Virus record (IMG/VR): IMGVR_UViG_3300031555_006030
Length of the DNA stretch: 64,000 nt
Source of the DNA: a virus
Reading direction: 5' to 3' (one strand)
This document shows, one piece after another, positions 1 through 59,125 of the stretch. Below the pieces are notes generated by a model. The model was not told where the DNA came from, did no database searches, and saw only the letters and a program-made list of their open reading frames with translations. The position numbers and the translations under genes were made by a program. Numbering within the stretch: the stretch's first letter is position 1; every line of letters starts with the position of its first letter.

Positions 1-129
1 AATTCGGTCAGACTGATTTGTACCATATATCACTAAAATCTCTTGACAGAGAAAAGGAGAAATCTTAATAAGAGTGGTTACATTATAGATATAGCAATCT
101 TTAATTTTAATAAACATATTTATACCCCC

Positions 130-477
130 TTAATAAGTATCGTATCCGAGGATTTCGGCAGTCTCTTCGTCAATCAATTCATCAAAGACCGCATAATCGA
201 AGTTGTCGTCCGCTACCTCTTGACACTTTGCGATAAAGTCTTCCATTTCCTCTCCGTCCTCTTTTTTGAGTTCGACAAGGAAAACCTCCCCGCTCTCTTT
301 ATCATAGAATTTAGCGTCAAGATAATCTCCGACTTTTGTTGTTTCCCATATCTGTTCGTTGCTCATTTGTTTTACCTCTCTTTTATGTATTTGTATCAAG
401 AGCAAGTTGTCTGTCTGCTCTAAACTACTCAATGGTTTCGGGTATCTCAACCGTGCGTTCTCCGAGTTTTCGTTCAT
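130..477 (-). CDS. hypothetical acidic early protein
   Basis: 115-aa minus-strand ORF from the ORF track. The overlapping plus-strand ORF 43-423 is low-complexity and is read as an antisense artefact. Confidence 0.5.
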   Translation of the reverse strand: MNENSENARLRYPKPLSSLEQTDNLLLIQIHKREVKQMSNEQIWETTKVGDYLDAKFYDKESGEVFLVELKKEDGEEMEDFIAKCQEVADDNFDYAVFDELIDEETAEILGYDTY

Positions 478-559
478 CGTTTCCGAGCCTTGCTCTTGAT
501 TACATACATATTATATCATAAATAAATCTATTTGTCAAGTGTTTTTGCAAAAGTTTTTT

Positions 560-700
560 GAAATATCGAATAAGTTTACAAAATGTTCATAATTTAACAG
601 TAGGTGCTAAACTATTGGCTTTACGGGTAACAAATTTGAAATGAAAGGTTCATAATTTTGCGTAAAAAAGTTTACAAACTGTTCACAATTTCTTAAACCG
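560..700 (-). promoter_or_regulatory. early intergenic region with repeated TTTACAAA-TGTTCA(C/T)AATTT motifs (putative operator or promoter elements)
   Basis: Copies are seen directly at 573-597 and 668-692, with a partial copy at 641-653. The core TTGTTCACAA is palindromic. Confidence 0.4.
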
Positions 701-757
701 GCCCGCGCGCGAATGTGTGCGGGCCGGGCAAACAAAAGAAGAGGGCTTGCGCCCTCT
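700..757 (-). terminator. two GC-rich hairpins downstream of gene 757-1041 (minus strand)
   Basis: The hairpins are ccggcccgc...gcgggccgg and aagagggcttgcgccctctt; on the minus strand the latter is followed by CTTTTGTTTG. Confidence 0.45.
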
Positions 758-1041
758 TACTGCATATCCACGGTGCGTTCTTCAACAATCATAACGGTGT
801 CGGTTAAGAACACGGGATTGCGCCACTCCTCATAGAAGCCCATTCCGTCATCTACGAGTTCGGCTCTGTTGCCAATCGTTCTCTTGACATAGTCAATAGC
901 CTTGTCACGGGTAGAGAAAAGCGCAGGCGCGTGGTCTTCGACTTCCCAAGGATTAGGTCCTAAAATCTTGCGCATGGTGGCGGTCCAGATGGTCATAGCA
1001 GATACCTCTTGTAATATGTAGTCAGTAAGAGAGCCTTGCAA
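757..1041 (-). CDS. hypothetical early protein
   Basis: 94-aa ORF with a TTG or ATG start, sitting downstream of a consensus promoter. Confidence 0.5.
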   Translation of the reverse strand: MQGSLTDYILQEVSAMTIWTATMRKILGPNPWEVEDHAPALFSTRDKAIDYVKRTIGNRAELVDDGMGFYEEWRNPVFLTDTVMIVEERTVDMQ

Positions 1042-1105
1042 GGAAGGAGTGCATGTTGCGAGGGTGCTTTTTCAACCCTTATCTCCTCTCCCCTACTGCT
1101 CTTAT

Positions 1106-1134
1106 ATTATACCACATATCGGGATAGAAGTCAA
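1106..1134 (-). promoter_or_regulatory. sigma-70-type promoter (TTGACT, 17-nt spacer, TGgTATAAT)
   Basis: The reverse complement of 1106-1134 reads TTGACTtctatcccgatatgtggTATAAT. It is followed by a leader ATATAAGAGCAGTAGGGGAGAGG that is also found downstream of the promoter at 1902-1930. Confidence 0.6.
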
Positions 1135-1251
1135 TAGGCAAAATGCACAAACTTTCAGCGCCAAATTTGTGCAACCTGCACAGATCGCGTAAATCGTGCC
1201 GCGGCGGGCGGTCGCGGCACGGCGAAAAGAAGAGGGCGCATTTGCGCCCTC

Positions 1252-1449
1252 TTAATATGGGTATACTGACATTCTGCGGATCATTGTGGCGTCACCTTGT
1301 TGCTTCAAGGTGCGCTCGGCTTCTTTCGCTTTTCGCTCCAAGAGATATTCACCACAGCAATACCACCCTTCGCCCACAAGGACATAGAGTTTCCACACGG
1401 TGTGCTTCATCATTCCTCGTTTTCCTCCTCTATAATCTCTAAATCCCAC
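1252..1449 (-). CDS. hypothetical small Cys-containing protein
   Basis: ORF-track entry. The true start is probably the internal ATG overlapping the upstream stop. Confidence 0.3.
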   Translation of the reverse strand: MGFRDYRGGKRGMMKHTVWKLYVLVGEGWYCCGEYLLERKAKEAERTLKQQGDATMIRRMSVYPY

Positions 1450-1589
1450 TCATATCCAAGGGGGTTAACAGGGTCAAGCCAAGTCCATTCATAGTCCTCG
1501 CAGAATTGGACGGCTTCATCGAAAGTGGGGAAGGAACGGAGTTTTTTCTCCGTCCCCCCAAGAGAGAAAGCATATACATTGAATACCAT
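1410..1589 (-). CDS. hypothetical small acidic protein
   Basis: The internal Met of ORF 1410-1715 abuts the stop of the upstream gene at 1591. Confidence 0.3.
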   Translation of the reverse strand: MVFNVYAFSLGGTEKKLRSFPTFDEAVQFCEDYEWTWLDPVNPLGYEWDLEIIEEENEE

Positions 1590-1590
1590 A

Positions 1591-1845
1591 TTAGCACTCC
1601 CCCGTATAGCAACCCATATAAGGGTCAAATCCGCTTTCGTCGGAGTCGTCGTCGTAGTCAAACTCGTCGGTAAGGGGGCAGAAATCCAATCCTCGGTTAT
1701 AGGTGGCTTCAACAAGAGCCTCGGCCTCGTCCTCGGGGATTAAGCCCTGTTCGCAAAGAGCGACAACGCGCCATATGGCTTTGGTATGGACATCTTCGTG
1801 TCCAAGGTCATGGGTTGCAAGGTCTGCGGTTTGTCTGATAGTCAT
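1591..1845 (-). CDS. hypothetical early protein
   Basis: 84-aa ORF. Confidence 0.45.
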   Translation of the reverse strand: MTIRQTADLATHDLGHEDVHTKAIWRVVALCEQGLIPEDEAEALVEATYNRGLDFCPLTDEFDYDDDSDESGFDPYMGCYTGEC

Positions 1846-1901
1846 GGTATTTACCTCTTGATTATGTAGTCAGCAGGGCGGTTCTCCCTTACTGCTCTTA
1901 T

Positions 1902-1930
1902 ATTATATCACATATTGACACAAAAGTCAA
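1902..1930 (-). promoter_or_regulatory. sigma-70-type promoter (TTGACT, 17-nt spacer, TGaTATAAT), paralogous to the one at 1106-1134
   Basis: The reverse complement reads TTGACTtttgtgtcaatatgtgaTATAAT, with the same downstream leader ATATAAGAGCAGTAAGGGAGA. Confidence 0.6.
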
Positions 1931-1949
1931 TGAATATTTTGTAACATAA

Positions 1950-2045
1950 TTGCAAACAGTTTATGAACATTTCGGGACGGGATTTGTTCATACTTTATTC
2001 AAACATTTGAAACAAAAAATTTACAATTTGTTCACAATTCCATTT
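1950..2045 (-). promoter_or_regulatory. cluster of TGTTCA(C/T)A operator-like motifs upstream of the promoter at 1902-1930
   Basis: Copies occur at 1953-1968 (inverted), 1980-1991 and 2015-2040; a GC-rich hairpin lies at 2041-2066. Confidence 0.4.
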
Positions 2046-2110
2046 AGCGGCTCGCGGCGATGGGTCGCGAGCCGAGCAATAAAAAAAGGGCGCCTAAAGC
2101 GCCCCTCCAA

Positions 2111-2281
2111 TTATCCTATGGCTTGGATTACCACTTCATCGGTAGTAGACTCGTATACTGAAAACTCGGCATTGTCACTATGTGAGTACCCTTCTCCCGT
2201 ATAAGGGTCAATAATATCAAGCGCAATGTTTGCATCTTGAGGAAGTTCTTGCAGTTTTGCTATAAGTGTTTTTACAGTCAT
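2111..2281 (-). CDS. hypothetical 56-aa protein (below the ORF-track length cutoff)
   Basis: Found by manual translation of the minus strand; it has an SD-like GGAGAT 6 nt upstream of the ATG. Confidence 0.35.
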   Translation of the reverse strand: MTVKTLIAKLQELPQDANIALDIIDPYTGEGYSHSDNAEFSVYESTTDEVVIQAIG

Positions 2282-2360
2282 AATTATCTCCTTATATTAT
2301 TTTTATTTGGTGGCGCCAAGAGTTACCCCAAGGCGCCATATGGCTTTGGTATAGGTTTTC

Positions 2361-2582
2361 TTATAGCGCGTCGGGCGCACGAAAAAATACTCTGATTTTG
2401 TTATAGCCATATCTTTGCAAGTCTTTAAGTGTCCAGCCTCTTGAGTGACACAGTTTGGTTATGGCATGCTCTTGATAATATTGTTTCCGTTCGTAGTATG
2501 CTTCGGGAGAGGGTACCTCTATGCGGTACCCTGCTTCCTTATATCCCTTGTCACTTGATAACTTTACATATGCGTATATCAT
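2361..2582 (-). CDS. hypothetical early protein
   Basis: 73-aa ORF. Confidence 0.45.
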   Translation of the reverse strand: MIYAYVKLSSDKGYKEAGYRIEVPSPEAYYERKQYYQEHAITKLCHSRGWTLKDLQRYGYNKIRVFFRAPDAL

Positions 2583-2594
2583 GCTTCCCTCCCA

Positions 2595-2774
2595 TTAAGC
2601 ATAGGCATACATCATAATATCCGCTATGCACTCTTGTAAGTCATCACCGTCAGCCGTCCATCCTGTAAAATCAAAGCCTTCTTCTACAAGGTCTTCATAC
2701 CATTCAAGCATTTGCCATCCTTCGATAGCTTCAAAAACAACCTGCCCATTATTGTCGCAAATCTCAAAATACAT
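2595..2774 (-). CDS. hypothetical 59-aa acidic protein
   Basis: Manual translation of the minus strand between the track ORFs. Confidence 0.35.
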   Translation of the reverse strand: MYFEICDNNGQVVFEAIEGWQMLEWYEDLVEEGFDFTGWTADGDDLQECIADIMMYAYA

Positions 2775-2804
2775 TATATATACCTTCCTTTCATATGGGG
2801 CGGT

Positions 2805-3050
2805 TTATACCGCCCCTATTCTTTCGAGCATATGCTCTTCGTACTGTGCGCTTATATCCTCTTCCATGTCATACTTCTGCGCTAATTCCTCATAGTATGC
2901 CATGAGTCCCTCGTGGGCTTCCCTGACCTCTCGGTCAAGGGCGTCCACGGCTTCCTCAAATTCCGCTTGCTTGCGGTTGTCTATGTATCTATCAATAAGC
3001 ATATTCCCAATCTCCTCTCTCGGTATGGATAGTGATAATATAATCGTCAT
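2805..3050 (-). CDS. hypothetical early protein
   Basis: 81-aa ORF. Confidence 0.45.
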   Translation of the reverse strand: MTIILSLSIPREEIGNMLIDRYIDNRKQAEFEEAVDALDREVREAHEGLMAYYEELAQKYDMEEDISAQYEEHMLERIGAV

Positions 3051-3231
3051 GGTCTATGGTCATGCCGTGAATATCACAGCACTCATTGTCTGCCCAATCA
3101 AAGGCAAGTCGCGCATAAATGCGGTGGTGATTATCAAATACCTCTTTGAGTATGGCTCTTGTCGTATCCATATCTTTACCCCCTTTAATCAATGTATACT
3201 TTGCAAATATTGCCATAAACTCGACCGCCAA
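2992..3231 (-). CDS. hypothetical early protein (true start probably internal)
   Basis: 79-aa ORF that overlaps its neighbour. Confidence 0.35.
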   Translation of the reverse strand: MAVEFMAIFAKYTLIKGGKDMDTTRAILKEVFDNHHRIYARLAFDWADNECCDIHGMTIDHDDYIITIHTERGDWEYAY

Positions 3232-3355
3232 AATTATTAGCGTCGCATGCGTTTATAATTTCTTCTTCCGTCATGCCGTCATAGTTTTTAATTCCGTAGG
3301 TTTCCGCGCCGTACTCTTTCATAAGTAAAGTTTTTTCAAAGTTTGCATTTTTCAT
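3185..3355 (-). CDS. hypothetical small protein
   Basis: The internal ATG sits just downstream of the promoter at 3414-3442 and has an SD. Confidence 0.4.
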   Translation of the reverse strand: MKNANFEKTLLMKEYGAETYGIKNYDGMTEEEIINACDANNFGGRVYGNICKVYID

Positions 3356-3413
3356 TTTGTTTACCTCTCTTTTTTTGTTTTTTGTTGAGTGACTCTCTTG
3401 CCCCTCTGTGCAT

Positions 3414-3442
3414 ATTGTACCACAGTTTGGATTGATTGTCAA
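3414..3442 (-). promoter_or_regulatory. sigma-70-type promoter (TTGACA, 17-nt spacer, TGgTACAAT)
   Basis: The reverse complement reads TTGACAatcaatccaaactgtggTACAAT. A direct repeat TTGTGAACAAATTGTGAACAAA lies just upstream at 3466-3492. Confidence 0.55.
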
Positions 3443-3705
3443 TAGGAAAATGAAAATTTCTTTTTGAATTTTTTGTATTTTCTTTTTGAACAAATTGTGA
3501 ACAAATTTTGGGTGTCTTTTGGTAAAAATTGGAAAACTACGCCACATTGTAAAGCTTTACGGGATTTTAACTTTTTAGCACGCTAAAGTGGTTTTGCTCG
3601 CGACAATTCTCTCCTAGAAAATTCAAATAATTTCAAAAAACGATAACCATTTAATAACGCATAATAAAAGAGGGATTTTAAATAAAATCCCTCTTTATCA
3701 CCTAT

Positions 3706-4401
3706 TCAATTTGATTTTTTACGCATGCGTCTCTGTTTAGCTTTTTCGGCCGCTCTCGCGCGTTTCTTTTGTTTACTCCACTCTTTCTCTCTTTTTAACT
3801 CTGCCGCAATATTCTCAATTTTCTCTCCAAGACCAACCCTTACCCATGTCCTATAATGCGCCTCAATGGGCCCACACGCGCTCTCTGCGCCAATCTTCAC
3901 AATTTCTCCTACATGTCTAAAAAAGAAACATACAGGCGGCATATGTGTTACGATATCATTTTTGTTTCTATATACTTTAAAGGTGCGCCAGCGCTCTTTT
4001 AATTTTTGCGGCAGGCGCCAACCCGCATAAATACGCGGGGCTTCGAATCCATATCCTAGTATATGATCTCCTTGGCGCAAATCTCCTCTATGGAACCAAA
4101 CACATTCATGACAAAGTGCGGCGAGCGCGCCTCCATGACTATATCCTACTACTACAATTCTGCGCCATCTATAGCTTCCATTTTCCATAGGATCCTCTTC
4201 AAGAATCTTATTAATAATAATATCCTCTACTGTTTTCCAGCACTTTAGAAAACCGCCGTGCACACGATAAGAGATTTCCATATCTTTATAGGGGCGGCGC
4301 CAATAGGAGAAATTATTGCGCCAATCATCTAAGCCATCGCTTGGTTCAAAGAAAATATATAAAATCCCCTCGCCTGAATCCTCTATGAATCCATAGTCCA
4401 C
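3706..4401 (-). CDS. alpha/beta-hydrolase, lipase class 3-like protein
   Basis: GYSHGGALAAL matches the GxSxG nucleophile elbow of the Lipase_3 family; the C-terminus is K/R-rich. Confidence 0.55.
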   Translation of the reverse strand: MDYGFIEDSGEGILYIFFEPSDGLDDWRNNFSYWRRPYKDMEISYRVHGGFLKCWKTVEDIIINKILEEDPMENGSYRWRRIVVVGYSHGGALAALCHECVWFHRGDLRQGDHILGYGFEAPRIYAGWRLPQKLKERWRTFKVYRNKNDIVTHMPPVCFFFRHVGEIVKIGAESACGPIEAHYRTWVRVGLGEKIENIAAELKREKEWSKQKKRARAAEKAKQRRMRKKSN

Positions 4402-4459
4402 TCCATCTCCTACCTAAGTATAGATTTTATCTTTGTTACACATTTTAAAAAGTTCTAAC

Positions 4460-4648
4460 TCAGTCATCATTTTCAAGTACCTCTAAAGGTTTGTTTAACA
4501 CTGCGGTCAACATCTCTTGTTCGCGGCGGCTATCAACATATCCTGCATCATATGCACCATCAATAGCAGCTTCAAACTCGGCAAGAGTAAGAGTAATAAA
4601 TTCACATCCATTTTTATCTTTGCTTACTTTAACGATAATTGGTTTCAT
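4460..4648 (-). CDS. hypothetical early protein
   Basis: 62-aa ORF. Confidence 0.4.
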   Translation of the reverse strand: MKPIIVKVSKDKNGCEFITLTLAEFEAAIDGAYDAGYVDSRREQEMLTAVLNKPLEVLENDD

Positions 4649-4989
4649 GCGCCCACCTCGCTATTCGGCGCTGAAGGGTGCAGCTCAATCTTCTTTGTAT
4701 CTGGATCGCCGCCAAGATCAATAATATGATATATATATTCGCCTCTTTTAATCGTTCCAACAAAGCACGCATATCTATCTCTTGAATTAAAGATGTGATC
4801 CATCTCCCAACCAGTCCCTACACATGCCATTAGATGATCTTCATATTCAGCAGTTGTGTCTACTTTTGCCCAAAAACATAAATTATTATGAGCATCGGCG
4901 CCAACACTTAACACTATTGCGCCCTTAGGCATTCTATATACCTGATTAATAAAATCTGGTTCAATTTTATATTTCCAAATAGTTTGCAT
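4645..4989 (-). CDS. hypothetical early protein
   Basis: 114-aa ORF. Confidence 0.45.
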   Translation of the reverse strand: MQTIWKYKIEPDFINQVYRMPKGAIVLSVGADAHNNLCFWAKVDTTAEYEDHLMACVGTGWEMDHIFNSRDRYACFVGTIKRGEYIYHIIDLGGDPDTKKIELHPSAPNSEVGA

Positions 4990-5067
4990 TATTTTTCTCC
5001 TTTAATAATCTTTAATTATATTATATCTTGAAAATTTTAAAATGTCAAGCCAAAACTCCTCGATCTA

Positions 5068-5096
5068 TTGACATTTTTCAAAATTTTTGGTATAAT
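5068..5096 (+). promoter_or_regulatory. consensus sigma-70 promoter at the start of the plus-strand late module
   Basis: TTGACAtttttcaaaatttttggTATAAT has an exact 17-nt spacer and an extended -10 TG; it lies about 30 nt upstream of the gene at 5128. Confidence 0.65.
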
Positions 5097-5127
5097 TTGA
5101 TTAAAGATAGATGAAAGGAGCCATAAT

Positions 5128-6297
5128 ATGGAAAAAATAACCTTATCAGACATTCTGCCAGAAGAAGACCCAGATACCGAAGACTCGGCTCCTGAACAAG
5201 AGGCAGAAGTTATTGAGGAGAAATTACTCGAAGAAAATATTGAATCTACTATTAAGCTAGACTATAAATTAAAAACCTGCGAAGAGCGCGCCGACCTTGT
5301 TAATAAGATCGTGGCGCAAACCCCTAAGGAGAAATTAAGCAATCGCTATTTAGAGATTTTAGGTGATTACATAATGGGCGGCATTAGTAAAGAAGAAAAA
5401 AAGGCGCGCCTATACTTGACTGATAATCGCTTGATAACGATTAATAAGCGCGAAACTTCTTTTGAAGGATTGGCAGAAAAGTTTGAAAATGGCGAAGATG
5501 GAATTTATAATTTGATGGTAAATGATAAAAATGTTTTACTTACACCTAAAATTGGAATTACAGATGAAGATATTAACACAATTCCTGGATTAAAAGAGCT
5601 TAAAATTCAAATGCAAGCCACTGAAGAGGCGATAAAAGCGGCAACTGGTAAAAAAAAGTATTTACTTAAAAAGTAGTTGATTGAAATGCGCCGTGATTAG
5701 TATGCGCTTAAGAATTCTGCTAAGCCTCCTATGTATTTGGCGCCCACGCCGCATGGATTAAACAAAGTTGACCTCTCTGAGCATCGGTGGGTTGATTCAA
5801 ATGGAAATCCTCAAAGCGATGGGCTAATATCCTTCTTTAATCCAGTTCACATTTTGGCAATTTTAAGTAATTACAATGCGTTAAAGTTAGAGACCAATGG
5901 GCGCTATCAAAATGACTTTTATTATCTTATGGAAGATTTTGACTTACTCTTGAATAAAAGCCTTGAAAAATATCCCCATTTTTTAGATTTCTTAAAAATG
6001 AAATTTGATGGAAAGACTAGCGCAGAAATTCAAACCATGTTAAAAGAAAAATATAATATCTCTTATTCAATTTAGTATATATCTTCTTTATGGAGAACTA
6101 AAATTCCAAAAATAATTGCAGAGAAGGCGCAAAATGATTATTTAATATGGCATTATACCAATGTAGAAAAGGGCGTTTGGAAAAAGTGCTCTTGTTGTAA
6201 ACAGCTAAAACCTTCTAGCACACGTTTTTTTTCAAAAAATAACACCAGTAAAGATGGATTGTATAGCATTTGTAAAGAGTGCAGAAATAAAAAATAA
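5128..6297 (+). CDS. hypothetical protein with a C-terminal Cys4 zinc ribbon
   Basis: Three in-frame track ORFs (5128, 5731 and the tail) are joined by reading TAG as sense. Every codon across the gaps was checked, and the gene ends in TAA at 6295-6297. Three TAG codons. Confidence 0.5.
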
Positions 6298-7586: not shown

Positions 7587-8206
7587 ATGGCAGTTCAAGA
7601 TTTAATTAATCTCGCTCTTGAAGGGGGCTAGAAAAAGATTGGTATTTCTGAAGAGCGAATAAGAGTTTAGATTCCAATAATTCGTTAGTATGTAGCTTAT
7701 TGGCGTGAGTACCCAGATATGTTTGTAGAGTTTCTTTGTGGTTCTAATCCAGAGAACTTTTCACTATTCTTTTATTAGCGTCTTTTTTTGCGCGCAGTTA
7801 TGCGTCATAGATATGCTTATGCCACTTTCCCTCGTGCATATTCAAAGAGCTTCTTATCAGTACTTGTTTTAATGCTTAGATGCATACTTTATCCCGGTAG
7901 TCATTTATTCGTTACTACAGGCGGCAAAGAGTAGGCGGCGGGTATTGCTAAAGAAAAGTCAGATGAGCTTTGTAAGTTAATACCTGGTTTAAAAAATGAA
8001 CTAGATATGACAAGAGGTAAAACTAAAACTAGTAAAGATAATATTGAATTAATATTCAAAAATGGTTCAAAATTAGACATTATGGCTGCGCGCCAGTCCT
8101 CTCGTGGTAAACGTGCTACTGGTGGTTTAATGGAGGAATGTATTCTTATAGACTAGACCTTGTTGAATGAAGTAATAATCCCTAGATACTGGGGCGCAGC
8201 AGCGTG
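7587..8206 (+). CDS. terL: terminase large subunit, ATPase domain (exon 1; includes TAG codons)
   Basis: It has a deviant Walker A PRAYSKS and the pattern RGKRATGGLMEECILID (Arg finger and Walker B). The reading frame ends at TGA 8204-8206 and is followed by GC-rich non-coding RNA. Confidence 0.6.
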
Positions 8207-9293
8207 AGCTACTGTGGAAAACGGTGTGAACCTGTGATACAAGGGTGTGGATCTTCGGATCTGCTAACGGGGAACAGTCAAAAACCCCGTGCCAAGCTTC
8301 ACCGTATGGTGTTGAAGGTGTAGAGACTATCCGGGATGAGTGTACCGGTTAGGGTGGAATTGATCACCACTCGAAGCGCACCGCAACTAAAAATTTTGGT
8401 CAAATTTTGATAATATTGCTACTTTAAATTTTATATATTCATGAAAGGGAATAATCCCGGGATAGAATGTAAATCAAAAGGAGTAATATTATGTGGAAAA
8501 AATTTTATTTTGAAGGTGTTGAAACAGATTATAGTGTTTCAACAGAAGGGGTAGTAAGAAAAGACACAACAGACTATATTTTATCACAATCTTCTTAGCA
8601 GGATTATAAATTTGTAACTTTGCTTATAGCAGGAAAACAAAAAAGAATGAGAGTGCATAGAATGGTGGCTGAAACTTTTCTTGACAATCCAGAAAAGAAA
8701 CCTTATGTAAATCATATTAATGGTAATCGTGGAGATAATAATGTTGAGAATTTAGAATGGGTTACTCCCTCAGAAAATACTCAGCATGCTATAGAAACTG
8801 GTTTATTCATGTCCGGTAGGGCAAGACCAGTAATTCAATATAATCTTGACGGTGTGCAGATGGCAACCTTTGAAAGTGTCTCTGAGGCAGCTCGTCAAAC
8901 AGGCGGTTCACAAAGCAAAATCACAATGTGTTGCAGACGTCAAAGATAGACAGCTAATGATTACCAATGGAGATATTATGATGATATTCAAGATGTGACC
9001 AAAATTGAGAAAAAATTTATAACGGGCAAAAAGGTTGCTCAATGTGATGAAAATGGAAATATTTTGGCAATTTTTCCAAGTTTCAAAGAAGCGGCGAGAG
9101 CCGTAGATGGGACCTCTTCAGCCATTAGCAGAGTATGCAGTGGTATGAATATTCGTCACAAAGGTTATAAATGGAAATTAGTTGATGATATAGTCCAAGA
9201 AGACATCTAATAGATGTTTTCTTGACCATGAACGTAGACCGAAGACTTTCAGACGGCTCTCGTATAGAAGATGAGACTGTTAACAAATCGTAG
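8207..9293 (+). mobile_element. putative group I intron interrupting terL (boundaries approximate)
   Basis: It begins with a ~250-nt stretch of ~50% GC with stops in all frames and a GATCTTCGGATC tetraloop hairpin. An R-like GTAGAGACTATCC at 8320-8332 and an S-like GATATAGTCC at 9187-9196 can form P7 (GACUAU paired with AUAGUC). The HNH ORF lies between them. Confidence 0.5.
8490..9210 (+). CDS. HNH homing endonuclease (NUMOD4 N-terminus, HNH_3 core, two IENR/NUMOD-like C-terminal repeats)
   Basis: The sequence reads YSVSTEGVV...HRMVAETFL...VNHINGNRGDNNVENLEWVTPSENTQHA. The repeats FESVSEAARQTG and FPSFKEAARAVDG follow. Two in-frame TAG codons; the gene ends in TAA. Confidence 0.7.
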
Positions 9294-10373
9294 ATTTATG
9301 TGACTACCGCAGGATGGAAAAACAGCTTCGCATACGAGAAACTTATAGAACTTCTTATTCGTCAGATTATCTACCCTGATGAAGCAGTTGTTATGGGTGG
9401 AACTTGGCGCATTCCTGTTATGGAAAAATTATTGAAGAAAAGTTTTATTGAGGAATTAAAGCTTGATGGAACTTATAATGATGCATCTTTTAGCCGTGAA
9501 TATGAGTCAGAGTGGTCTGGAGATGCCGAAAATGCGTTTTTCTCTGCAGAAAAGTTTGATAAACATCGTCAATTATTACAGCCAGAATATGAATTCTCTG
9601 GCCGCACCTCTAAAAATGGTTATTATGTATTAGGAATTGACGTTGGCCGTTTTAAATGCACTACAGAGGTATGTGTATTTAAAGTTACTCCATAGATATA
9701 GGGCGCTGCACATAAATCTTTAGTTAATCTCTATTCTTATGAAGCAGAGGACTTTGAAGCGCAAGCTATTAAAATTAAGAAGTTATTTTATAAATACAAG
9801 GCGCGTATTGCGGCAATAGACGCGAATGGTCTTGGCGCAGGTCTAATTGACTTTATGACAAAAGGTCAAGAAGATCCAGAAACAGGAGAATATTTACCTC
9901 CTTTTGGAGTTGAAGGCGGAACCTCAGACGAGTTTAATGAATAGTATAAGAAAATTAAGGGTCCCGGTGTTGAGGAAAATGCTATGTATTTAATTAAAGC
10001 TAATGCGCCTATTAATACAGAAGCACATACTTATGTTCAAACTCAATTAGTTGGTGGTAAAATTAATTTATTAATAGATGAAACTTAGGCTAAAACTAAA
10101 TTGATGACAACTAAGATGGGATAGGAAATGGATGCGGCCAAGCGCGCAGAGTATCTAAAACCTTTTACTTTAACCACCATCTTGCGCGAGCAATTATTAA
10201 ATTTAGTAGAAGACAACGAAGGTGTTAATATTATTCTTAAGTAGTCTTCAAGAAGTATTCCCAAAGATAAATTTTCTGCTTTTGAATATGGTTTATATTA
10301 TATTAAACAAGAGGAAGATCGTAGTAGAAAAAGAAAGAAAAGAAACATATCTGAAATGATGTTCTTCTCGTAA
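9294..10373 (+). CDS. terL: terminase large subunit, nuclease domain (exon 2)
   Basis: IYVTTAGWKNSFAY matches the motif III consensus (iiSTPnG.NhFY). YVLGIDVGR marks the start of the RNase-H-like nuclease domain. It is in frame with ORF 9300, spans several TAG codons and ends in TAA at 10371. Confidence 0.6.
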
Positions 10374-23734: not shown

Positions 23735-23795
23735 AATTTAAATTAATATAATTACCCTATTTATTATAATTAATAAGTAGGGTATTTTTATATCC
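23735..23795 (+). terminator. hairpin plus T-run after the chaperone gene
   Basis: taccctatttat...ataagtagggta is followed by TTTTTA. Confidence 0.4.
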
Positions 23796-23819
23796 AATAA
23801 AGAGTTAAAGGAGGATATT

Positions 23820-26800
23820 ATGGGTAAAAATTAGGCAAGATTAGGTATTGGTATTGATTTTAATGTTAATACTGCTAGTTTAAATAATGTAAAGTAGTCT
23901 CTTGAGAAACTAAGAAAAATGAGCAAGGATGAAATTGAAAAATCTGGAGGCAATATTCTTGGCTTATCTAATATGAAAACAAAAAGCTGGAAAAACGATC
24001 TTGGCGATATGCGAAAAGAATTAGCATCATTGGAAAAGGCCTTTGAAGCAGCGTATAATCCAAAACTGGGTACATATGAATTAAATAAATTTAATGAAAG
24101 CTTGAAAGTGTCTGGAACTACTGCAGGATAGGCCTTTGCCACCATTGCAAATTATGGCACCGAGGGAAAAACAGCATTGCTTGATATGACTACAAGTATG
24201 TTAGCTATTGACCGAGTTGGGAAACAAACAAATGAAACCTTTAAAAAACTTGGCGATACAATGATGAATACCATTAGATGGACTATTACATCTACAATTA
24301 TTAACAGTATTTCAAGCGCTATTCAATAGGCATTTAATTATGCGGTAGATTTAGATGGTGCACTGAATGATATTATGATTGTTACCGATAAATCTTCGCG
24401 TGAAATGGAAAATTTTGCAAAATCTGCGAACAAGGCGGCAAAAGAGCTTGGCGCCTCTACTCGAGATTATACAGAAGCATCTTTAATATATTATCAATAG
24501 GGTTTAAGTGATGCAGAAGTTAAGGCGCGTACAGAAACAACTGTAAAAGTAGCTGCTATCACAGGATAGAATGCAGATGTTGTTTCTAAACAACTTACTG
24601 CTGTATGGAATGGTTATAAGGTTAGTGCCGAAGAGTCAGAAATGTATATTGATAAACTTTCTGCCGTTGCAGCAAGTACCGCAGCCGATCTTGAAGAATT
24701 ATCAACTGGTATGTCTAAAGTGGCTTCGGCTGCTAATGTTATGGGTGTTGGAGCTGATTCATTAAACGCTTAGCTTGCAACAATTGTTTCAGTTACTCGC
24801 GAAGCACCAGAATCTATTGGTACAGCTTTAAAAACAGTATATGCGCGTATGAGTGATATTGAAGCTGGACTAGATACTGAAACCACATTAGGTGAGTACA
24901 CTTCTCAAATGGCTCAAATGGGCATTAACGTACTAGATGCTAATGGTAAATTGCGTGATATGGAAGATATTATTAATGAAATCGGTAACGGATGGTCAAC
25001 CATGACTCGCGAATAGCAAGTATCCTTGGCGCAATCTATTGCTGGTACTAGATAGTATTCCCGTATGATGGCATTATTTGATAATTGGGGCATGTATCAA
25101 GAACAGTTTAATGTCTCTATGGAAGCTACTGGTACTTTAAATCAATAGCATATTGAGTACCTATAGTCGATTGAAGCACATCAAAACAAATTAAAAGCTT
25201 CGGCCGAAGGATTATATGATGCAATTTTTGATTCAGACTCTATTAAAGGAGTTTATGATGTTTTAAGTGGCTTTACTGAAATGGTAACTGGTTTAGTTAA
25301 AGGTTTAGGTGGAATGCCAGGTATCCTTTCTGTTATGTTAATGTTAATTACCACTCTTGGAAAAAGAAACATGCAAGATCTTATAATAAAAAGAGAGTCT
25401 AATAAGTTACAGGCATAGCTGTATAGAACATAGATGGAAAATAGTTAGGCTACTATTAAAAGTCTTGAAGAAGAAGTAAAAGGTCGTACGGAGTTAAAAG
25501 AATAGCTTCAAGACATCTTAGATCTTGAAAAAAGAATTATTGAATAGTCAGATAATTTAACTGATGATTAGTTTAATAATTTATAGGCTGGTATTAAACA
25601 ATATGCTGAAAATTTAAAGGCTGTTATTGCTATTGAAAAAGAATATAATAATATTAAAGCTGAACGAGATCAATTAAAGTAGTCTTTATCAGGTGAAACT
25701 ACTCAAACTTTTAAAAATGAAGCTGGCGAAAGAGTTGTAAGTTATGATTTAAAAAATAAAGAAAATGTAAAAGGAAGAATAGGAACAATAGAAGCGCGAA
25801 AGCGGTTATCCGACTTGGAAAAGGCAGAACATAAGGCCACTTTTAATCAAAATGCAAAATAGCTAACAAAACAAGAGTAGGATGAATTAAAATTTTTAAG
25901 AGAGTATTTACCATTAGCTGAGCGTAAATTAAAACTAGACGAAGAGTTAAAAAAAGCAGAAGAAAAATTAGCTAATGCAACTGAAAACACTGCTAACGCT
26001 AATAAAAACTTAAAAAGTAGTATGAATGACAGTCTTGATGCAGTAGGGCGCGCGGCAGTTGTGACTGAGGTTGCATAGGGGATTGCCTCGGTTGGCATGA
26101 CTGCAGCGATGGCTTCGGGGGCAGTACAATCTTTTGCAAGCGCTATGAGCGCTTCTGGAGGAGGCTTTTCAGATTTTCTTGGAGGTATTACCGGAGTAGC
26201 GGGTGCAGCTGGCTCAATGATAGGTAATATTACAGCTGCAAACAGAGCATTAAAAAAAGCAGGGCCTACTGCGCAAAGAGTAGGAGCAAAAATTTAGCTT
26301 GCTTTTGGCTGGGTAAGTCTTGTAATCGGTGCTCTTTCTGCGTTAATTTAGATAGTAAAGGAATTTAATTAGGCGCAAATAGATAGCGCAAATGCTACAA
26401 TTGAAGCAGAGCGAGAGAGATAGAAAGAACTTTAGAAAACCTTAGATTTAGAATAGTCTTTTTTAAAATTATATGAAACATATCAAAAAACTGGTGAAGA
26501 AACTGAATAGTTAATTTCTGCTACGGAGTAGATGTGTGAAGCTCTTGAAAGCTCTTAGTTAAAAGCTCTTGCCGCAGCTGGAGCATATGATTAGTTAGCA
26601 GCGTCTATTAGAGACAAAACTTCTGCAACATATGATGATTTGGCACAATCTGCTAATGCAGAAAAAAGCGCGGCAGAGACGAAATTAAACAAAGTAAAGG
26701 CTTCTAACACTGGAGGTATTGCAAATGCATCAGAAACTCTGGATTATATTAACGCAGGAGATTCTGTAACAGATGGAGATGCAGAAAACTTAGAAATTTT

Positions 26801-29423
26801 AAAAAATATTTTTGAAAACAGTAATAATGATAAAGTACGAGCTTTAATTTCACATAGCGATGACTATAATATTTGGTTTAAACGCATGGCCAATATGACA
26901 GCTGAAGAAAAATCATTATTTTACCATGCCCTTAAAGAGGCCACCGCGCAAGATGGATGGAATACAAGTTCAAAAAGTGAGCTAAATAAGAAAGTTCGAA
27001 AAATTTTAGATGATGAAGATTTTGCAGGAGCTGTTGCTGATTATGATACCGCAAATAAAACTGGTTCCACTGCGAAGGTTGCAAAATCAGTTAGTCAAAA
27101 CTCATATTCAAAATCGACCTCTATAAGCTAGTTTAAAACAGATCGTGAAGCTCTTATTTAGGATATAAAAAACTCACAAAATATTGACTATGACACCGCT
27201 GCTTCACGAGTAGATGCCCAATATGCTAAGGTAGGAGATTCAAATGCTTAGGCATTATTGGCTAGAACATAGTGGTTACAAGGTAGTGTTCAAGCAAAAA
27301 CTATGACACAAGAATTTGCGGATGAGTTAGCAGGAAAAATATCGTTAGATCAGCTAGGCACATCAGGTTTTAATGCATTAAAAACAATTGATTTATCAAC
27401 TTTTACCGGCTCTGCAAAAGATCTTGTGGATGCAGCAAAGACAAAGGCAGTTGAGCTACAAGATGAAGCATGGACTGAGTTTGGAGAATCTCGTCTTAAA
27501 GTTCTTGAAAAAAATTATAACGATTTAGAAAAAACTATTGATGAATCAGTTGGCTCGGATAAAGCAAAAAAGATTTTAGAGTTAAATAAAAATCTAGAGG
27601 CTTAGCAAGTAATTTTGTAGTCCCTTAGTGAAGAAGAACAAAAAGCTTTTGATAAAAAAGTAAAAGAATTTAAAACAAAAACAGGCATTGATTATACAAA
27701 TCCAGAAGATGCTAAGGACTTAATTGCAAAAAAATATGCTAATGATGAAGATAAAAGAGCAGAATATTTATAGTTGCTACAAGATGTAACTACTGCTGAA
27801 ATAGCCTATAACGATGCCACTAAAGCGGTTACTGAAAATCAAGAGCAAATATATCAAAAGAAACTTGAATCATTTGATACAGAGCTTGAATATTTAGACA
27901 CTTTAAAAAGTCGTTATGAGAGTCTTCAAGGTACTCTTTAGGAAGTTGCAGACTTATACAAGAAAATTTATGGTGAAAATGAATTTTCTAAAATGGTTGA
28001 GTTGTACGATTCTATGGCATTGTTATCTTCTACGTCTTATGGAAAAGCTGGAGAGAAATATCAAACATTACTAAATGCGACGAATCAGGGTGGTTTTACG
28101 GGCGCCGATGGGGTTTGGTATAGTTTTGAAGATGACGCCTCTCGACAAAAATATTTAGATGAGCTTGTTGCGGCAGGAGGAGATTATGTAAGTGCATTAA
28201 CAAGTCATGTTGAGCTTCTTAGAGAGAAGATGGCTAATAGTATTAATGCAGCTTTTCAAGAGAGTGCAAAAAGAGCTACTGGCAAAGGTCTTGATTATCT
28301 TGATCGAGAATGGAGATATATTCAAGAAGATGCAGATAAATATTTAGATACAGTAGAAAAAACTTATCGCATTGAAAACCTTGAACTTGATGTTAAAGAG
28401 AAAATTAATAAGTTGACTAATAAGAGCGCCTAGGCGCGCCTTTCTAGTGAACTTGATAGACAGCTTAGCGTTTTGCGCGAAATGGATAAGCTTTCTGAAG
28501 AAGATATTACTCGCGCCGAACAAAAACTTTCACTTCTTGAAGCTGAGATTGCTCTTGAGAATGCGCGTAATAATAAAAATAAGATGCGTTTAGTTCGTGG
28601 AGCAGACGGCACTTATAGTTATCAATATGTGGCAGATCAATAGGCTATTGCTGCCGCCGAGAGGTAGAAGAGAGAGGCTCAATAGGCAGTTTATGACTCT
28701 TCTAAATCAAGTTACATGGGCACTGTTGATGAATTTAATTCATTGCGCTAGTCTTTTGCTGAAGAATATGCGTCTGCCGCAACCGATAAAGACAAATAGC
28801 AAGTAGTGGCTAAATATAGAGAGTGGTTTGGCACAGCCATAGAGCGTAATCAAGTCGCTTTAGGTGATTTTAGAAAAGCTGGAGGAACAGCTAGTTCTGG
28901 AATGCAAACTTGGTTAGATGCTTTCTCTACTGGTGGTAGCAATGCTTTAATGGAGGAATTAATTAAAGCGGCAGAGGCTACTAATTACACCGATGAAATT
29001 AAATCTATCACTGGAGATGTTGGTAACATTGCTAGTGATATTAGAGGTATGGCTGAAAAATTTGGAATATAGCCATCTTCCAATGACACAGGAGGATATA
29101 CAGGTTCTTGGGGATTAGATGGTAGACTTGCAATTCTTCATGAAAAAGAGTTGGTTCTTAATAAACAAGATACTAGCAATATTTTGCAATCTGTAGAAAT
29201 TGCGCGAGCTCTTTAGTCTAAGATGCTTGATACTGTCTCTTCAATGCGCGTAACCCCAATGACGCGCGCATTTACAGATTCTAATAATTCTTCTACTATT
29301 GAACAAAGAGTAGAAATTCATGCAGAGTTTCCAAATGCTACTAATCATAGTGAAATTGAGCAAGCTTTTGATAATCTTGTTGGATTAGCTACATAGCATG
29401 CCTATAAAAATACTCGTGGATAA
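23820..29423 (+). CDS. tail tape measure protein (about 1867 aa; about 50 in-frame TAG codons)
   Basis: Track ORFs 23919, 26097, 26640, 27303, 27993 and 28806 are all congruent mod 3 with the ATG at 23820. The protein is long, coiled-coil-rich, alpha-helical and Ala/Gln-rich; it ends in TAA at 29421. Confidence 0.75.
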
Positions 29424-56365: not shown

Positions 56366-56537
56366 TTTTATTTTCTCCTTTTGTCTGTCTTTTTAAAAAT
56401 AGTTTACTTTCTTCTGTTGCTTGAGAGAGATATTTTTCTAAAATATCTCTCTCAAAAGCATAGTCGTAATTAACAACCATTTGATATGAATAACTATTTT
56501 CATAGTTTTCAATAGTTTTCTTTTCAATTATTATCAT
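56355..56537 (-). CDS. hypothetical small protein
   Basis: 60-aa ORF. Confidence 0.3.
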   Translation of the reverse strand: MIIIEKKTIENYENSYSYQMVVNYDYAFERDILEKYLSQATEESKLFLKRQTKGENKNGK

Positions 56538-57935
56538 TCTTCCATGTCCTTTCTTTCATGCACCAATTCCATATCGCGCCCATCATTGAAAAGCGAAATC
56601 TTATAGATTTGATGAGTAGGTGTGTGCTTATAGGTTTTGGTTACGAACTGATCACCTCGTCTAAAACCAGTTAAGAGTAGCATCGTTCCTCTCTTGAACC
56701 AGCCCTTCTCCGTCACCTTTTTAGACCCATCATCTTGAAGCTCCGACAATTGCTTCTTGTATTGCGCGTAATATTCTTTCGTAAACTTAACCGTTACAAC
56801 ACCCGAGGGGGTCAATAGGGTAATGGATGCTTTGTTATCATTCTTTGCGATTACAGTTCCAATGATTTTATGCGTTTTCCAAATTGGAATTTGTTGACCA
56901 TTGCGCTTAAAGTAATAATCAACTTCTGGCTCTTCTGGAAGCGCAAAGAAGTTTGAAATGCCATACTTGTAGGTATCAACATTCGCTAACTCATGCTCGT
57001 GATAATAGAAACACAAGGATTCCATTTCCCAAGAGGACAAAGAACCTTGGGCATATTTATTCCAAGCATCTATAAAGAGCTGCTTATTAAGTTCGTGCAA
57101 AACCTCGCTCTGATGCTCTTTTAACCAATCTCTGGCGCCATCCATTTGTTTTTGATAAATTCCATCCCAAGTTTTTTGTTGAATACAAGTTAAACCATTA
57201 ATAATCTCTAACTTTTCAATATCAAAGTTATCTTTATAGAATTTATCACAGGGTTCATCAAACACAAAATATTTTCCAACTTTTGTATTTGCTTTAAGAT
57301 ATTTATTAAACTCAAACACTCTGCGCTCAAAGTCAAGCGACTCTGGAACCAATCTACGCTGAATAAGTCCATTGAAGTTTTGTAAGGTTAATTTACTTTT
57401 AGGTTCACAAGCTTTCGATAAATAATATGCCATTACTACAAATCTTGGGTGAATATTTAACTCTTTACCCCATTCTATCTCAAGCTTATCAAAAGCGCCC
57501 GCCTTAATAAGAGAAATCATCTGCGTTTTATTAAGCGGACAGCGCTCCATGAAGTCTGCGATATTCGCGTACGGTCTGCCGCTTATTATCTGCTCAATAA
57601 CTTCACTATTGATTCCACTTAACGCTTTCATACCAAAAAGGATTTGATTATTTTCTACATCGGGTTTAAAACTAAATTGAGATTTATTTATGTCTACCAA
57701 AGACACATCGATACCAGCGGATAAAATATCACCAAGCGCTTTTGCCAGCTTAGTATAATCTGTCTGCTTGTCTTTTGCCTCTTCGTCATCATCCTCGTTA
57801 TCATATCCTTCAAGCGAACCACTATTGACAATTAAGTTTGCAGTATTCCAATAGATAGGATTCCATCTTGTGGCGGCGTATGCCGTCTGGAAACCAATGA
57901 AGCTGTAAGCGAGCGCATGGATAATACTAAAACTA
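56534..57935 (-). CDS. dnaE: DnaE-like DNA polymerase III alpha, C-terminal exon 2
   Basis: The in-frame sequence upstream of track ORF 56534-57706 reads FSIIHALAYSFIGFQTAYAATRWNP, matching the DnaE pattern [24 protein letters not shown]. The 5' boundary is approximate. Confidence 0.6.
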
Positions 57936-59125
57936 TCACGTAAATCCAGTATTCCTACTGGCGTAGACTATCTCTTACTTATCTTTGAGAGTAAGATAAG
58001 TACACCCATTTCCCGCCTCGTACCAATAGAGGAGGTACTTCCGATCTCACTCGGAATAGTCGTTACAGGGTTTTAAAGGATAACTTAATTTTTCATCATA
58101 AAAACATTCTCCAACCTTAATGCGGCGAACAGTTTCTTCGGAAGCTTTTACCATTTCTGCAATTTCTCTATTGGAAAAAGAAGTAGTTAACAAAAGCTCT
58201 TTAATTTTATTCGCGCGCTGTTCATTTGCAGATATTTTTCGGATTGGATAAGAAGGATATAATCCTTTTCTTAATGTTCCAGCATTAATTTTTTTAACAG
58301 TGGAATATCCTAATCCTAGCATTCTTGCAATTTCTGCTAAGCTATAAGTTGAATTTAATAGAAGTTCAATTAATTCATCATAGTCTTTATCCTCTTTATA
58401 GTATTTACAAAGTGGATATTCTTCATTTTCATCAAAATAATAAATACCATGATTTAGAGAAGAAATGAAAGAGGCGCTTGCGCCATACTTAATAGTAATA
58501 TCTAAAAATGGTGTTTTATCTTTGATGAGTTGCTTCATGTCTTGGATTTCTTCTTTTGTCCAGGTTCTAGCATGCTCTCGAGAATCTCCTCCCCAAGAAA
58601 CATTATATCCTTTGCCAGTACTGCAATGAGATTCTAATTTTTTAACCCAATATTTTTCTCTTTCATTTACTTCTTGGATATCTTCTGTGTAGAGCTTCTC
58701 AAGTAAAGATATTTCAAAAGCGGCTTCTCCATATTGTCTTATCTTTTGATGAATTAAATTATTATAAGATGAAGCCTTCTCATTGAAAGCGCATGAGCGA
58801 TGTTCTCTTACTCTTCTATTAAAATTGTTTGTTTGACCAACATATTTATGTTGATTAATTTTGTTTGTGTAGCAGTAAATATAATACATACCATTTCTCT
58901 CCTTTTTAATATTATATTACTGTTATCATTATCCTTTAATTTCCCACGGGATTGTCTGATAACAGTTAGGATATTTTTTGTATCCTCACTGTTATATAAG
59001 ATTTCCCCGTTAGCATTTATCTAAATTTGACCTTAATTTTAAAAATTTTTTAGATAAATACCCCACTGGTTAGTGGAAAAGGTGTATAGGGGCAAGTTTT
59101 TGTTTACCCCATTTGCGGGCCAATA
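57936..59125 (-). mobile_element. putative group I intron in dnaE (boundaries approximate)
   Basis: An S-like AAGAGATAGTCTACGCC at 57961-57977 and an R-like ACGACTATTCC at 58054-58065 can form P7 (GACUAU paired with AUAGUC). A P8-like hairpin CTTATCTT...AAGATAAG lies between them. The GIY-YIG ORF sits inside, and there are stops in all frames. Confidence 0.5.
58047..58889 (-). CDS. GIY-YIG homing endonuclease (intron-encoded; standard code)
   Basis: The N-terminus reads YYIYCYTNKINQHKYVGQTNNFNRRVREH; the C-terminus has a helix-turn-helix. Confidence 0.7.
   Translation of the reverse strand: MYYIYCYTNKINQHKYVGQTNNFNRRVREHRSCAFNEKASSYNNLIHQKIRQYGEAAFEISLLEKLYTEDIQEVNEREKYWVKKLESHCSTGKGYNVSWGGDSREHARTWTKEEIQDMKQLIKDKTPFLDITIKYGASASFISSLNHGIYYFDENEEYPLCKYYKEDKDYDELIELLLNSTYSLAEIARMLGLGYSTVKKINAGTLRKGLYPSYPIRKISANEQRANKIKELLLTTSFSNREIAEMVKASEETVRRIKVGECFYDEKLSYPLKPCNDYSE

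Follow-up and report, generated by a model that had tools for sequence, protein, structure and literature searches.

What is the short sequence that recurs upstream of the early promoters in the IMG/VR virus record IMGVR_UViG_3300031555_006030, and what would be expected to bind it? An earlier note on a 64,000-nucleotide stretch of this record (hereafter the window) described a palindromic, operator-like motif, repeated upstream of three paralogous early promoters on the minus strand. In the present analysis the element proved to consist of units repeated in direct orientation every 11 bp, and the note's more general proposal of a promoter-associated cis element of the early operons was supported: the repeat is intergenic, conserved in related phages and helically phased to the -35 hexamer. 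Judged from its sequence properties, it is very probably a protein-binding site. Since the same repeat stands at the same helical distances before promoters in chromosomes of Clostridia, it would most likely serve as a docking site for a host regulator. The more specific proposal, tandem binding sites for a regulator encoded by the Clostridial host and binding head to tail, has in our judgment about an even chance of being correct.

Read on the transcribed (minus) strand, the repeated unit is AAWT-TRTRAAY and the full form is AAAT-TGTGAAC-ANTT-TGTAAAC, with more single or degenerate units in register; on the plus strand the units read TTCACAA, TTCATAA and TTTACAA (TTYAYAA). The sequence originally described as a palindrome, TTGTTCACAA, is no true palindrome, its reverse complement being TTGTGAACAA, and as a 10-mer with up to one mismatch it occurs in the window at chance level (8 matches versus 7.35 expected). 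The 21-mer TTTACAAANTGTTCAYAATTT, with up to three mismatches, has three matches (575-595, 671-691 and 2020-2040) versus 0.10 expected, and single or degenerate copies are found at 648-654, 1962-1968, 1986-1992 and 3484-3505. Seven of the 23 copies of TRTGAAC in the window lie inside the approximately 1.1 kb of intergenic DNA within 1-3600. The two-unit pattern TRTRAAY-N4-TRTRAAY, with up to one mismatch, gave ten matches, six of them in early intergenic DNA, and the other four correspond to the 4.15 expected by chance. The motif is confined to intergenic DNA, and pairs outside the early intergenic DNA are at chance level.

Phased pairs or arrays of the repeat sit upstream of promoters P1, P3 and P4 (Table 1). 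The three minus-strand promoters initially listed, which correspond to P2, P3 and P4, were recovered with 11 of 12 consensus positions and a TG-extended -10 hexamer. The claim that motif copies lie upstream of each of them stood for P3 and P4; the copies at 573-692 precede P1, which had not been listed, and not P2. As to the positions of the copies, those containing the long-form 21-mer were retained, whereas the copies at P4 centre on 3484-3505 rather than 3466-3492 and are in opposite orientation to the promoter; there, degenerate units with 11/22-bp spacing continue down to the -35 hexamer. P2 is without any AAWT-TRTRAAY unit, and the motif is likewise absent from other consensus promoters of the window (e.g. 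5020-5048, 5068-5096, 10799, 23142 and 52175). P2 and P3 do have the common leader ATATAAGAGCAGTA(G/A)GGGAGA, as had been noticed, and are the truly paralogous promoters, but their upstream elements are entirely different, and the description of three paralogous promoters had to be abandoned. Because P2 and P3 share core and leader and not the upstream element, and because separate motif copies have only about 24 bp in common, the motif is not a passenger of promoter duplication.

Table 1. Promoters, repeat units and terminators of the early region, with one related phage locus (window positions unless an accession is given)
Feature	Position	Strand	Description
P1	510-538	-	TTGACA-17-TATAAT, TG extension, 12/12 consensus
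UP-like A/T-rich stretch ATTTCAAAAAACTTTTGCAAAAACAC	539-573	-	between site A and P1 -35
Site A	574-595	-	AAAT-TATGAAC-ATTT-TGTAAAC; proximal unit starts 42 nt upstream of P1 -35; identical in L003
Single unit AAAT-TATGAAC	648-658	-	11-bp register with site B
Site B	670-691	-	AAAT-TGTGAAC-AGTT-TGTAAAC; directly after the double terminator of the upstream operon
Double terminator upstream of P1	689-758	-	hairpin 739-758 then T-run; GC-rich hairpin within 689-736
P2	1106-1134	-	TTGACT-17-TATAAT, 11/12 consensus, TG-extended; core and leader as in P3
P2 upstream element	1144-1173		inverted repeat TGCACAAAC-N-AAATTTGTGCA, its proximal arm ending 9 nt upstream of -35
Double terminator upstream of P2	1195-1253	-	hairpins 1230-1253 and 1195-1221
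P3	1902-1930	-	TTGACT-17-TATAAT, 11/12 consensus, TG-extended
P3 array	1951-2040	-	two-unit site 2019-2040 GAAT-TGTGAAC-AAAT-TGTAAAT; weaker in-phase units 2000-2018
P3 array, inverted copy	1962-1968	+	pair TATGAACA-N15-TGTTCATA around TCCCGTCCCG
P3 array, unit TATGAAC	1986-1992	-	single unit within the P3 array
Double terminator upstream of P3 array	2048-2108	-	hairpins 2084-2108 and 2048-2074
P4	3414-3442	-	TTGACA-17-TACAAT, 11/12 consensus, TG-extended
P4 array	3457-3505	+	11-bp direct repeats TTTTGAACAAA/TTGTGAACAAA at 3484-3505, opposite orientation to P4
P5	5020-5048	-	near-consensus sigma-A-type promoter
VRE9_2 locus L193	PP680568.1 122759-140257, especially 8500-9800		Rex and cre sites

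The distance between repeat and promoter was expressed, across the motif-bearing phages, as the start of the proximal unit counted from the first base of the -35 hexamer. Same-strand proximal units start at -21, -30±1, -41±1, -52 and about -96, and opposite-strand units at -16/-17, -27, -38 and -49. For a period of 10.5-11 bp, the Rayleigh p-values at phage promoters were about 1e-5 to 1e-7, figures that are optimistic since the phasing promoters are partly paralogous within a phage. In the window itself, units start at -53/-42 and -149/-138/-116 for P1 and at -106/-95/-62 for P3, with an inverted unit at -38, and the opposite-strand units of P4 start at about -60/-49/-38/-27. With respect to the -35 hexamer, units of one orientation are shifted by about 4 bp against those of the other, which would be expected of an oriented protein and not of symmetric curvature.

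The same 21-mer was found at ten loci in a scan of viral contigs (locus numbers are preceded by L). Two of them (L008 and L009) carry it in coding sequence, at a conserved NCE(H/Q)FVN peptide, and the status of L005 is uncertain; the other seven correspond to six contigs, L002 and L007 being on the same one. The motif precedes TTGACA-17-TATAAT-type promoters in L001, L003, L004, L006 and L007, and forms long arrays of 11-bp period, in divergent orientation around a hairpin, in L002 and L010. In L010, tandem runs reach about 12 units and occur in both orientations, giving a total of 42 overlapping two-unit pairs. L003 is closely related to the window phage and syntenic with it, and L010 is a distant relative (about 50% amino-acid identity in structural genes). 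A further 80 family loci were fetched with the sigma-like gene described below as anchor. Across the family, the two-unit pattern is present in a minority of members, namely L010 (42), L083 (24), L066 (10), L080, L084, L002/L007, L006, L003 and the window, and the motif-free loci, about 1.2 Mb in total, contain three copies. The spacers of 111 pairs, taken from 8 phage loci, consist of A/T only, and about 60% of the neighbouring units outside the search pattern keep T.T.AAY. When the window is compared with L003, the P3 units differ by substitutions at degenerate positions (TGTGAAC to TGTTAAC, TATGAAC to TGTGAAC); at P1 the two are about 94% identical over the whole interval -180 to -10 and diverge in the terminators and the leader. 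An A/T-rich stretch of the 'tttcaaaaaa' type abuts the -35 hexamer in many sister phages, including motif-free ones, and other words are enriched in the family lineages without the repeat.

The distribution of the repeat extends to bacterial chromosomes. An exact 21-mer scan of 185,579 bacterial and archaeal genomes, one per species, gave 102 stretches. Among the 80 whose titles were listed, about 70 were Clostridia or Bacillota metagenome-assembled genomes (MAGs), with Oscillospiraceae, Ruminococcaceae, Lachnospiraceae, Clostridiaceae, Hungateiclostridiaceae and Eubacteriales as named groups; seven matches among those listed were clearly non-Firmicute and mostly inside long open reading frames (ORFs), in keeping with the few to about 20 matches roughly estimated to arise by chance. 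Approximately 85% of the chromosomal 21-mers are intergenic, and only 4 of the 102 loci have any protein in common with the phage set. The distance from the proximal unit to the -35 hexamer of a good promoter in the same orientation was 19-21 (7 cases), 29-31 (3), 34 (2) or 41-42 (4). These host distances are those of the phage classes (Rayleigh p = 3e-5, the host promoters being predicted by consensus only).

Genes downstream of the host sites encode Hsp20, two HtpG-like proteins (a call based on the Pfam HSP90-type ATPase domain and the N-terminal sequence), HrcA, PPDK, ribosomal protein S2 (RpsB), PadR and a MerR-like protein. A CIRCE element follows the promoter in three of the four Hsp20, HtpG-like and HrcA loci, and LexA genes are divergent neighbours of the motif in three MAGs. 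About 18 matches represent one orthologous context, a divergent ABC-2 transporter operon in which the TTTACA of the motif serves as -35 hexamer; no two-component system was found among the neighbours in this context. Nine matches belong to a repeated cassette in one Oscillospiraceae MAG, SIG642, and the remaining contexts are diverse. This cassette is about 110 bp long, contains the 21-mer followed by promoter-like sequence and is carried by at least seven examined contigs (L099, L104, L109, L121, L129, L146 and L151), which display no protein similarity to the phage family.

Operators of known host regulators are present elsewhere in the phage family. Rex palindromes (TTGTKAA-N4-TTMACAA, up to one mismatch) number 129 in 1.46 Mb of family loci versus 4 in block-shuffled controls, with 6-15 per locus in L039, L047, L048, L061, L067, L072, L075/77/78/81, L083 and L088. 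They precede early promoters and are often paired around a short GC-rich core. The early, non-coding region of a cultured relative, Enterococcus phage VRE9_2, contains seven Rex-operator matches versus 0.24 expected. Four sites of the cre type (TGTAAGCGCTTACA) are present in the same early region versus 0.01 expected, cre being taken in its generally known consensus form. No description of Rex sites in phage genomes was found in a literature search.

P2 is preceded by an element of its own. The inverted repeat pointed out near this promoter in the earlier note, TGCACAAA-N14-TTTGTGCA, is indeed present and differs from the repeat found at P1, P3 and P4. The arrangement TTTGTGCAA-N8-TTGACA also occurs in the sister phages L014, L023, L048, L054 and L055, and the inverted repeat TTGCACAAA...TTTGTGCAA reaches 11-18 copies per locus in several sister phages, its proximal arm lying 8-9 nt before the -35 hexamer. 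Around the host 21-mer sites, at distances of up to 100 bp, the P2-type word TTGCACAA shows an enrichment of about 5-fold (5 observed versus about 0.9 expected).

The genomic setting of these elements is as follows. The first 5,000 positions of the window contain small minus-strand genes in consecutive short operons, each headed by a promoter of sigma-A type (P1-P5) that is near consensus and has a TG-extended -10 hexamer. Operons are closed by two consecutive hairpin terminators upstream of P1, P2 and P3, and by a single hairpin upstream of P4. The G+C content is 0.40-0.44 in this early block (1-4000) versus 0.28-0.40, mostly about 0.33-0.37, elsewhere in the window, and nearly all of its products are without match in Pfam and PHROG, the exceptions being a class-3 lipase and a DUF7352 protein. 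No close annotated relatives of 1-5000 or of the 126-nt array were found in the phage collection, the early lipase-like gene used as anchor retrieved no relatives, and no Rfam family scored above threshold in 1-5300. About 200 bp without ORF (3508-3705) lie between a terminator at 3667-3696 and the P4 array, and they too are without Rfam match. The 10-mer CCCGTAAAGC is common to the region upstream of P1 (620-629) and to about 3554-3563, which may be due to chance.

A consensus promoter at 5068-5096 (+), divergent from P5, drives a plus-strand block. This block (5100-47000) is fragmented under genetic code table 11 and becomes readable only with TAG as a sense codon, which yields long ORFs of up to about 1,890 amino acids (23742-29423), whereas no such reassignment is needed to read the early minus-strand block (1-5000) or the replication block (50-64 kb). 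There is no tRNA gene in the window, hence no suppressor tRNA there. The first recoded gene, at 5128-6297 (+), stands behind a perfect sigma-A consensus promoter; its product matches PHROG 5767 'sigma factor' (E = 1.7e-44), ends in a zinc-ribbon-like tail at the C-terminus and is 38% identical to proteins of the 134-142 kb Enterococcus phages VRE9_1-4, EF1, EF5 and H1. By analogy with the well-known layout of SPO1, this arrangement, a block of small operons next to a sigma-factor-like gene, is that of a large, SPO1-like phage of Firmicutes in which the early block serves host takeover. A DnaE-type polymerase at 56534-61620 (-), with PHP, pol III alpha and finger domains at 59104-61620 and HHH_6 at 56534-57706, is interrupted by a gene for a GIY-YIG homing endonuclease with a helix-turn-helix (HTH) at 58047-58889. 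The ORFs 7587-8207 and 9222-10373 (+), which match one continuous gene in L010, L080 and L083, are separated by an HNH/NUMOD endonuclease gene (8491-9210), suggesting an intron or a homing-endonuclease insertion.

What could bind the repeat, and how? The restriction to intergenic DNA, the head-to-tail 11-bp unit whose conserved core contains G/C, the distance to the -35 hexamer, quantised in phages and hosts alike, and the orientation offset of about 4 bp together fit tandem sites for a sequence-specific protein that would occupy one face of the DNA and be turned towards RNA polymerase. Each unit would hold one DNA-binding domain, and, with units one helical turn apart, protomers would be arranged head to tail on one face, a geometry resembling that of OmpR/PhoB-type winged-helix regulators. 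The arrays being upstream of the core promoter and of the UP-like stretch, steps of about 10.5-11 bp would keep the bound protein facing the polymerase. Its action would most likely take place through polymerase contact, probably with the alpha C-terminal domain, and the host-takeover operons would be either boosted or held back while the regulator is active. The phasing to the -35 hexamer suggests such contact, either as class-I-type activation or as over-stabilisation of the kind exerted by p4. Conditional silencing is suggested, on the other hand, by the closeness of the promoters to consensus and by the analogy with the repressor Rex. Early phage transcription may in this way be tied to a physiological signal, and sister phages appear to attain this coupling through operators of the host protein Rex, which responds to NADH/NAD+. 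That the protein is host-encoded is suggested by the chromosomal copies, by the lack of any early protein family common to the motif-bearing phages and by the Rex and cre operators of the family. On similar grounds, namely no shared early family, the identical 21-mer upstream of Clostridia promoters and the host-regulator operators found at equivalent positions in sister phages, the small early phage protein initially proposed as binder is not favoured.

Several observations nevertheless weigh against a host regulator. Host sites are single pairs, with only 7 extra relaxed pairs in 722 kb, and runs of about 12 tandem units, as in some of the phages, are unusual for such a regulator. The host scan relied on one exact pattern without scrambled control, about 27 of its matches are non-independent (the approximately 18 orthologous ABC-transporter loci and the nine copies in one MAG), and the phasing statistics are, as stated, optimistic. 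Conservation at P1 does not single out the motif, because the interval compared with L003 is conserved as a whole. Most sister phages lack the motif, which would also fit lineage-specific phage regulators; the window represents 64 kb of a genome of probably about 135 kb, so that a phage-encoded binder could be located outside it; and the early promoters, being already near-consensus, argue against the need for an activator. The units could accordingly be operators for a phage-encoded regulator, for instance a post-infection protein shutting the early promoters off in the manner of SPO1 TF1 or phi29 p4 and p6, and the host copies would then be targets that the phage protein also manipulates, or the result of mimicry of a host specificity. 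Arrays confined to the early region and amplified beyond the single pairs of the hosts, a motif restricted to some lineages when others have other enriched words, a genome of which only about half is visible, and the good sense that a repressor makes at near-consensus promoters all favour this explanation. We consider it unlikely, however, given that no protein family is common to the early regions of the motif-bearing phages and that about 40 window proteins, scanned against Pfam and PHROG, revealed no regulator or other DNA-binding domain apart from homing-endonuclease HTHs. Moreover, the identical 21-mer, at the same phased distances, precedes housekeeping and stress promoters in many families of Clostridia, and sister phages carry operators of host type (Rex and cre).

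The repeat might also act without any protein. Curved or UP-like upstream DNA is known from strong Gram-positive and phage early promoters, and phased A-tracts (AAAT every 11 bp), as curved DNA or distal UP-like subsites, could wrap RNA polymerase and raise promoter strength. Spacers made of A/T only in every unit, the 11-bp period with arrays phased to the -35 hexamer, the occurrence of both orientations and the position of the motif before highly expressed host genes agree with such a role. It is improbable all the same: the best-conserved positions are a core with G and C outside the A-tracts (TGTGAAC), the exact 21-mer is preserved across bacterial families, a separate UP-like A-tract stretch exists between motif and -35 hexamer and also in motif-free sister phages, and in about 18 host loci the motif does not lie upstream but overlaps the -35 hexamer and the spacer. 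The orientation offset is another objection, as near-symmetric AAWT tracts should hold one phase. Finally, 11-bp repeats form the partition centromere parC of plasmid R1, and the long divergent arrays around a hairpin in L010 and L002 recall a replication origin with iterons, a centromere or a packaging site that would be close to promoters by coincidence. This is very improbable, because the window has three or four small clusters, each at its own promoter and in fixed helical phase, because single pairs precede many unrelated chromosomal genes, and because the units are no DnaA boxes. A cluster of DnaA boxes (TTATNCACA) was indeed rejected as identity of the motif: only TGTGAAT-AA units fit (e.g. 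5 of 84 units in L010), and most units are 1-2 positions off.

If a host regulator binds the arrays, early transcription in widespread large gut and rumen phages of Firmicutes would be conditional on a host signal, which bears on when such phages can productively infect. A bolder and distinctly tentative extension is that an undescribed, Clostridia-wide regulator reads a direct-repeat form of the Rex half-site before stress, chaperone and other strong promoters, and that a large family of TAG-recoded, SPO1-like gut phages has amplified this site into arrays preceding the host-takeover operons, next to the Rex operators of sister phages and the cre sites of the Enterococcus relative. Such lytic phages would then read the redox or physiological state of the host before committing to infection. 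The phage arrays would also lend themselves, as a natural 'bait' in high copy, to identifying the cognate Clostridial factor and the chromosomal regulon under its control; no description of either was found. The Rex and cre clusters of sister phages, including cultured Enterococcus phages, represent an immediately testable system for the same idea.

In the literature search, no paper gave any of the motif's 16-mers or 10-mers as a regulatory sequence, and the text of a Clostridium thermocellum DNA affinity purification sequencing (DAP-seq) paper contains no matching motif. Comparison with known systems reveals partial likenesses. Sites of LexA (GAAC-N4-GTTC), CtsR, CodY, cre, TnrA/GlnR, ARG box, PurBox, CRP/FNR and parS were rejected by comparison with consensus sequences, mostly in their generally known form. 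A classical phage repressor operator, a palindrome that overlaps the core promoter and has its repressor gene nearby, was rejected too, since the repeat is direct and lies upstream of the core promoter, and since no repressor-like gene was found in the early block. So was a promoter for an alternative sigma factor, with whose -35/-10 spacing tandem 11-bp units are incompatible. The motif would fit the ResD consensus, which we take to be TTGTGAA-N3-TTT-N4-A, and this is retained as a lead only. UP elements and curved DNA resemble the repeat in their A/T-rich spacers, phasing to the -35 hexamer and association with strong promoters, but the offset of the repeat depends on orientation, unlike theirs. 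As an identity for the motif, the UP element was rejected: the motif has a conserved core containing G/C and lies at about -56 to -90 and beyond, and a separate A-tract stretch occupies about -37 to -60. The phage-encoded proteins phi29 p4 and SPO1 TF1 bind upstream of or at early promoters, and they illustrate how a protein bound upstream, on a single side of the helix, can repress a strong early promoter by contacting the polymerase; the window phage, too, has an SPO1-like architecture. However, the window yielded no gene resembling p4, p6 or TF1, and the repeat is shared with host chromosomes.

Rex operators read TTGTGAA-W4-TTCACAA (PMC2883068), or TTGTTAA-N4-TTAACAA in Clostridiaceae (PMC8457756), and the plus-strand units of the repeat are the right half-site of Rex or a one-mismatch variant of it, with the same centre-to-centre spacing of 11 bp. 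Exact half-sites are present (TTCACAA at 681-687 and 2030-2036, TTGTGAA at 3495-3501), the other units being one base off. The halves of the Rex operator are inverted, however, whereas those of the repeat are direct, and a symmetric Rex dimer would not be expected on such a site. The Rex palindrome was rejected as the identity of the motif: the window has one match at two mismatches (44058) versus 0.66 expected, and the early units are direct.

WalR/VicR, of the OmpR family, recognizes TGTWAH-N5-TGTWAH (PMC9210968, PMC4168254), which likewise consists of direct TGT..A hexamers 11 bp apart from centre to centre, in tandem boxes upstream of or overlapping the -35 hexamer. This spacing is seen as TGTGAA-N5-TGTAAA at 574-591, 670-687 and 2019-2036, and as the 11-bp period of the 111 phage pairs. 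With respect to TGTWAH itself, the proximal TGTAAA(C/T) fits and the distal TGTGAA or TATGAA does not, its W or G position being broken; TATGAAC and TGTGAAC are among the commonest units across the phages. The WalR/VicR regulon is one of cell-wall metabolism, and the host neighbours of the motif, namely chaperones, rpsB, ppdK, lexA, an ABC transporter and surface proteins, are not its cell-wall hydrolase genes.

With regard to the proposed biology, a comparable case is that of Bacillus phages phi29 and Nf, whose early promoters are accompanied by 0A boxes for host Spo0A, Nf having two tandem TGTtGAA boxes 3 bp apart (PMC2731898). The 0A box TGTCGAA itself was rejected as identity of the motif (4 in 64 kb versus 5.5 expected, none in early intergenic DNA, the copy at 271-277 being inside an ORF). 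The period is 10 bp in those phages versus 11 bp in the window repeat, and the window sites are farther upstream of the core promoter. In both systems, sites that belong, or in the window would belong, to a host response regulator stand by early sigma-A promoters of a lytic phage of Firmicutes, and early transcription in the window phage may be coupled to host physiology in the same way.

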